DNA from: a virus
Length of the DNA: 10,601 nt
IMG/VR virus record: IMGVR_UViG_3300027376_000018
Reading direction: 5' to 3' (one strand)
Position 1 is the stretch's first letter; every line of letters starts with the position of its first letter. The translations under genes were made by a program, and so were the position numbers. The notes under the pieces are model-generated. The model was not told where the DNA came from. It searched no databases and saw nothing but the letters and a program-made list of their open reading frames with translations. Positions 5,778 through 7,722 of the stretch are shown here, piece by piece.

Positions 5778-6052
5778 TAGAGTTCCTCCTGATGCGGCTT
5801 TGTCCAGTCGCGTTGATAGTGAATGTAGTCGATGAGAAAAACCTTGCTCACGCAGTCAGGCATCCGGGCGAGAATTTTCTCAGCTTCTTCCTTGGTGCTG
5901 GTGTTGCGGATGGTATCCGTGTACCATTCGCCGAGTTCCTTCTCCGCCTGTTCAAGCGACATCTCATGCCGCCAGAATGCCTCGGCGAGAAGCTTCTCTT
6001 CGAGCGTCACCATCTGTCGTGACTTGTGGATTTGGTCTTGAATCCTGTCCAT
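5777..6052 (-). CDS. hypothetical protein, 91 aa
   Basis: Full ORF with a 1-nt stop/start overlap upstream. Confidence 0.5.
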   Translation of the reverse strand: MDRIQDQIHKSRQMVTLEEKLLAEAFWRHEMSLEQAEKELGEWYTDTIRNTSTKEEAEKILARMPDCVSKVFLIDYIHYQRDWTKPHQEEL

Positions 6053-6639
6053 TAGCGTAGCTCTCCACGCTCGTACATTCCGAGCGTTTCTTCAATCTTG
6101 ATTACCATGGACTTGTAGAACTTGATTTCGTAGGTGGTCAGCTTGTAGGTCTTCGGCTTCAACAGTTCCTGCTGGAGCAGCCACATCGCACGAGGAATCA
6201 TCCGATAGATGCGCTCCGAGTGCAGCTTGCACACGGCGAGGAACCGGGACTTTGCCAAATCGAAGGCTGGCTTGACTTCATTCTTCTCGATTTGACGGAT
6301 GCCTTCTACCCTCTCGCGTTCTAGTTTAGCGAGGTACTCATAGAGCCCGAGACGGGCATTCTCAAGTTTGCGGTAGAGTTCTTCGTTGTAGGATTGGAAG
6401 TGCTTCACGCACTCGACGCCGACCGGGGCAACTTCACCGTTCGGTCCCCAGATGAGGAGCATGTAGCGGACGGGGTGACCGCATGTGCATTTGCCGTTTC
6501 CGTACTCTAGGAGGTCGATTACCTCGTCACGGAACTCATACTTCGAGGGGTCACCAAGCTTCTGAACGAACTTGCCAACGATTTCTTGGAAGTTCTCAAG
6601 CTGCCCGATTTTCTTCTCGATACCCTCGGCGGTCGTCAT
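6052..6639 (-). CDS. hypothetical Cys/His-motif protein, 196 aa (motif KCTCGHP...APVGVEC)
   Basis: First gene after promoter copy 3. SD GGGAGAAACC before ATG 6639. An in-frame ATG at 6651 lies 6 nt after TATACT and is a possible leaderless start. The track's 6678 start runs through the promoter motif. Confidence 0.55.
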   Translation of the reverse strand: MTTAEGIEKKIGQLENFQEIVGKFVQKLGDPSKYEFRDEVIDLLEYGNGKCTCGHPVRYMLLIWGPNGEVAPVGVECVKHFQSYNEELYRKLENARLGLYEYLAKLERERVEGIRQIEKNEVKPAFDLAKSRFLAVCKLHSERIYRMIPRAMWLLQQELLKPKTYKLTTYEIKFYKSMVIKIEETLGMYERGELR

Positions 6640-6651
6640 GGTTTCTCCCAT

Positions 6652-6710
6652 GCCAGTAGTATACCGGGATGACCACAATTTTAGCCACTAATTTGGAAAA
6701 TTTTTACGTT
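6652..6710 (-). promoter_or_regulatory. copy 3 of the conserved promoter-like motif (sense GTAAAAATTTTCCAAATTAGTGGCTAAAATTGTGGTCATCCCGGTATACTACTGGC-ATG)
   Basis: Same architecture as copies 1 and 2. The stop codon of the upstream 64-aa gene is embedded in the A-tract. Confidence 0.55.
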
Positions 6711-6898
6711 TTGGGCGTAACTTCAAGGTTAACAACGTCCAAAAGCAGGTGCCTGTCAATAGCCCATTTGAGGTCTTTTCGAATAAGTTCCACGTGCTCA
6801 TTGATGGTTTCCGGGTCCATGGGGTCACATTCATCTCCCAGTTCCCACCGTAGCGTGGCCTTGACTTCGACTTCAAGCACAGGCTTTTTCAATCTCAT
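6704..6898 (-). CDS. hypothetical protein, 64 aa (MRLKKPVLEVEV...)
   Basis: It is the protein-like C-terminal part of the track ORF 6704..7054. Its ATG overlaps the TGA of the proposed 40-aa gene (ATGA). Its stop lies in the promoter A-tract. Confidence 0.45.
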   Translation of the reverse strand: MRLKKPVLEVEVKATLRWELGDECDPMDPETINEHVELIRKDLKWAIDRHLLLDVVNLEVTPKT

Positions 6899-7017
6899 GG
6901 TCGTTTCCAATTGGCCCAAATGTGAAGACCCAGAGCAATGATGATGAGCCCGAGAGCCAACCACCAGTGCTGGCACCACCATAGCCATTCCATCTTCTTG
7001 ATTTCCCACAGACCCAT
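6895..7017 (-). CDS. proposed small membrane peptide, 40 aa, Trp-rich (MGLWEIKKMEWLWWCQHWWLALGLIIIALGLHIWANWKRP); not in the ORF track
   Basis: Its ATG shares a base with the TGA of the 72-aa gene, and its TGA overlaps the ATG of the 64-aa gene, so it exactly fills a 118-nt gap. One clear hydrophobic helix. Confidence 0.45.
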   Translation of the reverse strand: MGLWEIKKMEWLWWCQHWWLALGLIIIALGLHIWANWKRP

Positions 7018-7235
7018 CAGACGGCCTCGATGGTGATTTTGATGCTGTCCCCATCCTTGAGGCCGAGAGCGTTCATGATGTCCCGGCTGACGTAGTAATC
7101 ACCGAGACCTTCGCTGTCCAGCGTCACAGATGGCTTGTCTTCAGCCCAATTGATTTCGATTGCGATGGGCTCCATGCGAACGGAATGTTTCTTCGCTACA
7201 CCTTTTCCGAACGTGAGTATGACTGCCTTAGGCAT
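7017..7235 (-). CDS. AbrB/MazE/SpoVT-like swapped-hairpin domain protein, 72 aa
   Basis: The C-terminal YYVSRDIMNALGLKDGDSIKITIE resembles the lPkeiReklglkeGDkvei signature of AbrB/MazE. 8-nt overlap with the upstream gene. Confidence 0.4.
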   Translation of the reverse strand: MPKAVILTFGKGVAKKHSVRMEPIAIEINWAEDKPSVTLDSEGLGDYYVSRDIMNALGLKDGDSIKITIEAV

Positions 7236-7722
7236 CCTTCTCCTCCACCAATTCTTCTTCGGGTTCTTCTACTACCCCATCCCACTTGAAGCCTGAGCAC
7301 AGGCTATGGATGAAGAGATGTTTGTTAGCTGCGTACCACTCATCCCACTTCTCATCAGGAGCGGATGTTATTTCTTGCGGAACGTCAGGGCGGGATTCTT
7401 TGCGGTGTTCAATCTTCTCGTCGTCATCAGCGTAGTAGTGACAATACTTGCAGCCTATCGGAGCGTGGTCGTCGTAGCTGTCGAAGTGGCGATAGTAGGG
7501 ATGGCCGCAGAGACACATCTTGTTGTCGCCGAATGTGGGGTCGTATCCAAGCGGAGCGTCAACCTCCACCGGCATCCAACCGACGTAGACTTGTGGCACC
7601 TGTTTCACAATAACCTCTAACTCGATGTAGTATTTCTCCACCGAATAGGTGCCATTGCGATGACGAATGAGAATGAGTTGGTCTCGCTCTGGTGGTCTCG
7701 TAAATGGCGTCCACTCGTTCAT
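7228..7722 (-). CDS. hypothetical Cys/His-rich protein, 164 aa (motif KMCLCGHPYY...APIGCKYCHYY; acidic C-terminus)
   Basis: Start placed at Met57 of the track ORF 7228..7890, because that ATG overlaps the TGA of the 70-aa gene (TGATG). Confidence 0.5.
   Translation of the reverse strand: MNEWTPFTRPPERDQLILIRHRNGTYSVEKYYIELEVIVKQVPQVYVGWMPVEVDAPLGYDPTFGDNKMCLCGHPYYRHFDSYDDHAPIGCKYCHYYADDDEKIEHRKESRPDVPQEITSAPDEKWDEWYAANKHLFIHSLCSGFKWDGVVEEPEEELVEEKDA

Follow-up and report, generated by a model that had tools for sequence, protein, structure and literature searches.

The 10,601-nucleotide stretch of IMG/VR virus record IMGVR_UViG_3300027376_000018 (hereafter the window) encodes on its minus strand two neighbouring proteins, a 195-residue protein that we call A and a 164-residue protein that we call B, which share a Cys/His pattern consisting of CxCGHP followed by AP[VI]G. 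We conclude, with a probability of about 0.6, that A and B are small Cys/His proteins of two different kinds, both probably zinc-binding, and that the strings they share do not come from a recent local duplication, an origin that we consider highly improbable. An earlier note made from the letters of this DNA had suggested a duplicated, probably zinc-binding domain; the shared motif is literally real, and as a sign of duplication it carries little statistical weight. The two genes and the segments of their products lie as follows, with residues of A numbered along window positions 6052-6642.

6052..6639, minus strand: protein A, 195 residues, with its ATG at 6639-6637 and the ribosome-binding site (RBS) GGGAGA.
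6397..6537, minus strand: residues 36-82 of A, the putative zinc module (secondary structure by DSSP; predicted local distance difference test score, pLDDT, 90-92).
6472-6489, minus strand: the CTCGHP loop of A, residues 52-57, the predicted first knuckle.
6400-6429, minus strand: APVGVECVKH of A, leading from strand 71-75 into helix 76-82 with C78 and H81.
6220..6231, minus strand: C138-K-L-H141 of A, a CxxH within a long helix, with C138 and H141 invariant in 32 sequences.
7228..7722, minus strand: protein B, 164 residues, with its ATG preceded by a GGGAG RBS; homologues start at the same M..WTPF.
7558..7722, minus strand: residues 1-55 of B, the N-terminal domain (strands 16-21 and 26-30, helix 33-41, strand 46-51), with W-x-P-F-x2-P-P.
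7438..7545, minus strand: residues 60-95 of B, the module core YDPxFGDxxxCxCGHPYYRHFDxYxxxxP[VI]GCKYC[H], which matches phrog_24688.
7498-7515, minus strand: CxCGHP of B, within the module core.
7441-7464, minus strand: APIGCKYC of B, within the module core.
7300..7437, minus strand: residues 96-141 of B, a clade-specific insert of ~47 residues between the module's fourth and fifth Cys.
7288..7299, minus strand: C142-S-G-F145 of B, the displaced fifth Cys (C142, nearly invariant) with its aromatic residue.

Both strings quoted in the earlier note are present exactly, on the minus strand: NGKCTCGHPVRYMLLIWGPNGEVAPVGVECVKHF in A and DNKMCLCGHPYYRHFDSYDDHAPIGCKYCHYY in B. Several details of its description need amendment. 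K-x-C-x-C, claimed for both proteins, is the arrangement in B; A has K-C-x-C, which places the lysine out of register. The residues separating the proline of CxCGHP from the alanine of AP[VI]G number 14 in A and 11 in B, rather than 15 and 12. A-P-[VI]-G is indeed common to the two, and the x(1,2)-C said to follow it is not an apt reading: in A two residues and then a Cys follow (APVG-VE-C), and in B a Cys follows at once, with another two residues later (APIG-C-KY-C). Zinc binding, which the note had proposed, is plausible for each protein, because the shared Cys and His residues are invariant or nearly so within each family and the confident model of A places them in a knuckle-hairpin-helix arrangement.

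A protein identical to A (P0026) was recovered, together with 32 homologues that are 50-71% identical to it, all of them metagenomic and several located on contigs of 248-435 kb. Within this family C78 never varies, and conservation reaches at least 90% for C52, C54, H56 and H81; position 76, a Val in the window, is occupied by Cys in most orthologues (APVGCEC), and the Gly of CxCGHP is found in 8 of the 32 members, most having Asp instead (CTCDHP). AlphaFold2 (AF2) models A with a mean pLDDT of 89.5 as a helix at the N terminus, then the knuckle-hairpin-helix module with the putative zinc site, and finally a long stalk or bundle of helices. The chain runs through helix 4-29, strand 36-43, the CTCGH loop at 52-56, strand 60-65, the turn GPNGE, strand 71-75 (APVG) and helix 76-82 with C78 and H81, and continues in long helices to residue 191. 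On this model the zinc site of A appears to be a knuckle-hairpin-helix of the treble-clef or SWIM type, with the spacing CxC-x23-CxxH: the CxC knuckle, the β-hairpin and the first turns of the helix, carrying C78 and H81, would form a treble-clef or SWIM-like site that caps the long helical stalk, making A a zinc-capped helical, possibly oligomeric, adaptor. The conserved C138/H141 pair further along may be an extra metal or interface site.

Searches with A found little outside its own family. A tblastn search of 50,697 phage records with A gave no match, there were no relatives in the PDB or in profile libraries and no PHROG match even at E ≤ 10, A searched alone had no distant relatives, a search with the zinc-module alignment gave one fragment only, and fold searches gave nothing but generic helical bundles. 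To judge by its sequences, the A family appears restricted to the clade of huge phages to which the window would belong. In one orthologue of A, on a 413-kb contig (P0027, 218 residues), an internal stretch of ~23 residues (VGCECIKHFQAYNDKLFNSLENAR) is repeated exactly in tandem, so that the second ligand pair occurs twice; this is either a real duplication or an assembly artefact.

Protein B, of which an identical copy (P0001) is present on metagenome contigs, begins with a β-β-α-β domain and continues into a Cys/His module that is split. The N-terminal domain is specific to the B proteins of this clade and is confidently modelled over residues 1-50 (AF2 pLDDT 82-93); it has weak BFVD matches to DUF551 and DUF7441 proteins (E 0.1-0.3, and 0.2-0.3 for DUF551). 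Window B has no Pfam match to DUF551 (PF04448), and in two other proteins DUF551 is fused to a B module (E 1e-6). Residues 58-97 match positions 16-55 of phrog_24688 (PHROGs v4, unknown function) at E 1.1e-13, and nothing else in B matches any library.

The module has a consensus of ~45 residues, YDPxFGDDxxCxCGHPYYRHFDxYxxMxPVGCKYCxCxxF, and B scores 77 bits against a hidden Markov model (HMM) of the domain built from 166 sequences. A profile search of 1.84 billion representatives of clusters at 50% identity matched 1,295 clusters at E ≤ 1e-3, 1,087 of them at E ≤ 1e-10, with nearly all matches confined to profile positions ~60-108. Twelve residues are invariant in 142 diverse sequences (C70, C72, H74, Y76, R78, H79, F80, D81, C91, K92, Y93 and C94), and window B holds all 12 as well as C142-x-x-F145. 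C-x(2,3)-[FWY] follows CKYC in 161 of 165 members. The fifth Cys stands two residues past CKYC in 114 of these 165 and 33-48 residues past it in the window's clade; the module of B is therefore split by an insert. Because the module has eight conserved candidate ligands (five Cys, two His and one Asp), we infer that it holds two zinc ions.

This module is found in cultured Rak2-like jumbo phages (Munch, 7t3, GAP32, CBB, BF, fHe-Yen9-04 and Erwinia phages) and also in 160-kb Bacillus phages and 130-kb Streptomyces phages, in proteins that are always annotated as hypothetical and that sometimes consist of the domain alone, in 66 residues. Scanning 185,579 species genomes for one module peptide pattern gave only 7 loci, all on contigs of metagenome-assembled genomes. 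Neither Pfam nor NCBIfam nor PDB sequences contain the module; the cluster names of ten B-module proteins say nothing beyond 'hypothetical protein', and string searches of the literature for CxCGH, YYRHF, GCKYC and CGHPYY gave nothing relevant. A few B-module proteins carry a helix-turn-helix (HTH), sigma-70 region 4, DUF551 or DnaJ-type Cys repeats. On the sequences collected, the B module appears to be a widespread, uncatalogued, phage-only Cys5His2 module that is very tightly conserved. One metagenomic protein (P0125, 218 residues) has two B-type modules, one of them strongly divergent (CTCGHPYAAHFASDEGMLAVGCRECEYQC), so the module tolerates more change than its main family suggests; P0125 is also a possible route to intermediates towards A.

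The motif region of B, predicted before the deep B-domain alignment existed, is poorly modelled (AF2 pLDDT ~50), with short strands at 79-80 and 88-89, between the ligand pairs. The sequence and this low-confidence model are compatible with the layout of A, with a hairpin three residues shorter. CxCGHP would be the first knuckle and the start of strand 1 in both proteins, and AP[VI]G would be strand 2, running up to the second ligand pair. The zinc sites would be structural and hold small binding modules that may serve as adaptors, with macromolecules of the host or the phage as partners. A nucleic-acid or transcription-related target is hinted at, in the case of the B module, by its invariant R78 and K92, by its invariant aromatic residues and by the few proteins in which it is fused to HTH or sigma-70 region 4 domains. 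The shared strings themselves may reflect either very remote common ancestry of the knuckle-hairpin unit or convergence on it. Knuckle-and-turn residues, such as a Gly after the second Cys and Pro-x-Gly before the next ligand, are also expected from convergence.

As single sequences, A and B are similar only at chance level. BLASTP gives E = 0.005 for that single pair. When all 28 proteins of the window are compared with one another (378 pairs), A-B ranks first at 21.9 bits, with the next two pairs at 21.2 and 20.8; the top pair of shuffled proteomes scores 21.5 ± 1.6 bits, and 19 of 60 such proteomes reach 22.3. The alternative that best survives is nonetheless one of common descent, in which residues 50-82 of A and 68-95 of B derive from one ancestral zinc knuckle-hairpin domain that split anciently, after which the YYRHFD and KY signature disappeared from A while its hairpin lengthened and the helical stalk was acquired. 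We regard this as possible and somewhat doubtful; the single-sequence result counts against it, and the comparison of family profiles speaks for it.

Aligned by hhalign, the B family and the A family give a probability of 16% (E 0.0016) over 28 columns, in a register that brings together both CxC[GD]HP and [AS]P[VI]GC with one 3-residue gap; profiles of the domains only give 46% (E 2e-4) over 26 columns. None of 150 column shuffles of the A alignment scored as high as the real 24.9 and 27.4 (the shuffles averaged 10.5-13 and peaked at 24.1-24.2). The 166-sequence B-core profile, used without realignment, gives 32% and shrinks the alignment to the six CxCGHP columns, which speaks against common descent; rerun with realignment, the same deep profile reaches PVGC. 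The earlier note had named similarity confined to CxCGHP as the outcome that would count against a shared domain: this is what the non-realigned deep run returned, and the three other runs span 25-28 columns, as far as PVGC. The profile-level signal between A and B is thus weak and in register.

HMMER is less favourable to a common ancestor, giving at most 13 bits between the families in two incompatible registers, the second of which sets CxC-x-KHFxxYN of A against CxCGHxYYRHFDxY of B. A is the best non-self open reading frame (ORF) of the window and related loci for the B-domain HMM, at 10 bits (E 0.038), and an A profile places real B domains ~5 bits above shuffled ones, both of which favour descent; the signal nevertheless depends on Gly55, a minority residue in family A, with 2.9 bits for one CTCDHP orthologue and 0-5 bits for such orthologues overall. 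Further, in the hhalign register A lacks equivalents of Y76, R78, H79, F80, D81, K92 and Y93, 7 of the 12 residues that are constant across more than 140 diverse B modules, and A alone leads to no distant relatives. On the other side, the APVGCEC of most A orthologues fits the PVGC of B better than window A does, both families open with CxCxH, and both have a further distal conserved Cys. The missing invariants, the low cross-family scores in competing registers, the minority Gly and a relative that has A without the B block all speak against the duplicated domain of the earlier note.

The position of the genes also bears on common descent. They lie 1.1 kb apart, and the order B, three small genes, A is conserved in three relatives (the window, the 413-kb relative and L007), with differing intervening genes, which favours a paralogous pair. 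In L018, an IMG/VR contig, A comes directly after orthologues of the window genes 9154-9432 and 8849-9181 (112 residues), with no B module within 4 kb of A. A and B are therefore not an obligate pair: B lies in a variable cassette, and A is conserved. Comparison of window 6704-8846 with L018 3256-4001 shows that a block running from a 184-residue membrane protein (8292-8846) through B to a 64-residue gene is missing in L018, which makes the B-containing block an insertion-deletion cassette of ~2.1 kb.

A more ambitious proposal, which we consider unlikely, is that the B module is an undescribed phage-exclusive binuclear zinc domain with one strongly selected host-takeover target (for example nucleic acid or the transcription machinery), of which the knuckle-hairpin of A would be a divergent offshoot; if so, huge phages would carry a small superfamily of such zinc modules. 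Pure coincidence, in which unrelated proteins share letters without common structural meaning, could draw on the shuffled proteomes that equal the BLASTP score, on a pair picked after inspection of ~28 proteins (~378 pairs) and on the other small Cys-rich proteins that make Cys strings common in the window, and it is very improbable, because the matched residues are exactly those conserved in both families, the profile score lies above all column shuffles, and in A a β-hairpin, with a ligand pair on either side, lies between the two strings; the low-confidence model of B likewise has short strands, 79-80 and 88-89, between its ligand pairs.

Several points weigh against our preferred reading of A and B as two different Cys/His proteins with structural zinc sites. 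The profile signal beats every shuffle, with both knuckles in register, so that true homology is conceivable. The zinc site of A is read from the secondary structure of a metal-free model, and the structural equivalence of A and B rests on a B motif model at pLDDT ~50 and on the sequence pattern. The two-zinc stoichiometry of B comes from counting conserved ligands, and the fusions that favour a nucleic-acid or transcription role are found in only 1-2 of 142 proteins.

The link between A and B adds little by itself, and the B module is the more useful by-product. Many phage proteins now called 'hypothetical' (~1,300 clusters) would gain an annotation if it were defined as a family; the module is among the most tightly conserved small domains that we found in large lytic phages, and it is a tractable target for determining zinc stoichiometry and a binding partner. 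A, as modelled, would be a separate conserved, clade-specific zinc-capped helical scaffold, encoded near Ku, a DNA ligase and a vault-like protein.

All plausible genes of the 10.6-kb window, as called from its ORFs, form a tight array on the minus strand. A metagenome contig of 34-40 kb (L003) includes a stretch identical to the window and encodes rIIB, Ku, an ATP-dependent DNA ligase and an 875-residue protein that has domains of the major vault protein, besides dozens of small genes without annotation. Homologues of A and B are found on contigs of 248-462 kb, a search at the DNA level found no similar cultured phage, and the vault-like protein has phage-database relatives only in the uncultured LR756500-503 (462-735 kb; 33-35% identity); we therefore take the window to be part of the accessory genes of an uncultured huge phage that has LR756500-503 as relatives.

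The vault-like gene itself lies on the minus strand at window 9469-10563 and continues past the window end (in full at L003 5627-8254, 875 residues). In its product Pfam recognises the major-vault-protein shoulder (E 6.5e-23) and Vault_3 repeats (E 3.7e-8), and a phage-encoded vault-like shell protein is unusual. The ATP-dependent DNA ligase is at window 798-1598, minus strand, and Ku (PF02735) at L003 1097-2098, ~15 kb from the ligase on the same contig, with rIIB nearby; Ku and DNA ligase form a pair resembling that of non-homologous end joining. At 3547-4074, minus strand, a 175-residue protein matches phrog_2072 (unknown function, E 4e-42) and has a faint Macro-domain match (E 0.12), a hint of an ADP-ribose-binding or hydrolase fold. 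Two small Cys-rich proteins, at 4563-4835 and 9154-9432 (both minus strand), show the classical zinc-ribbon spacing CxxC-x19-CxxC (CPDC…CLDC and CSVC…CDWC), and both have orthologues in L018. With these further Cys-rich proteins, Cys-containing motifs are therefore frequent in the region. Between B and A lie three small genes with overlapping start and stop codons, for which we found no Pfam, PHROG or PADLOC family:

6704..7235, minus strand: the three ORFs together, called in the same way on L003, which is identical here.
7017-7235, minus strand: a 72-residue gene.
6895-7017, minus strand: a 40-residue Trp-rich putative transmembrane peptide, MGLWEIKKMEWLWWCQHWWLALGLIIIALGLHIWANWKRP, with a hydrophobic stretch resembling a transmembrane segment.
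6704-6898, minus strand: a 64-residue gene.

The earlier note had not recognised either protein as HNH, His-Me or a standard zinc ribbon, and this judgement holds: no Pfam, NCBIfam or PDB sequence match assigns either protein to HNH, His-Me or any other finger in the catalogues. Scans of A, B and their relatives with Pfam, NCBIfam and PADLOC gave no family covering either motif, and PDB sequence searches with four profiles gave only the CxxCH strings of cytochrome c. FAM221 (E 0.0056, 1 of 25 proteins) and weak Lin-15B matches were not reproduced across members and were dropped. A resembles HNH and His-Me proteins in its ββα unit with flanking Cys pairs and its series H56…N68…H81. We rejected an HNH reading of A, in which H56 stands before β1 and not at its end, N68 sits in the turn of the hairpin and is replaced by D or T in some members, and no Pfam HNH match was found; for B the same reading failed on the lack of a conserved Asn and of any HNH-family match.

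Two zinc fingers were also compared. The CSL or DPH3-Kti11 finger (PF05207) has the signature CxCG…CxxC, which in DPH3 is C-P-C-G-D, ~19 residues and C-P-S-C. B is similar, with C-x-C-G, 18 residues and C-x-x-C, a likeness at the level of the signature; it differs in the extra invariant H74, H79 and D81 and in a fifth Cys, which CSL fingers do not have, and neither B nor its 166 relatives match PF05207. The SWIM zinc finger (PF04434) reportedly has the signature CxCxnCxH and a predicted ββα fold. The 32 A-family proteins (E ≤ 10) and 167 B-family proteins (E ≤ 1-10) gave no match to PF04434. The AF2 secondary structure of A may fit this layout, with a CxC knuckle (loop 52-56), β-strands (60-65 and 71-75) and a helix bearing the last two ligands (76-82); the spacing is different, CxC-x23-CxxH in A, rather than a terminal CxH, and CxC-x18-CxxC(xC) in B.

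B belongs with phrog_24688, a family without a described function, structure, or Pfam or NCBIfam entry. A does not match it at E ≤ 10, and the domain HMM gives A 10 bits split over two registers. B, by contrast, shares its signature CxCGHPYYRHFD…GCKYC, as found in Rak2-like jumbo, Bacillus and Streptomyces phages, and adds to it the clade-specific N-terminal domain and the insert of ~47 residues.

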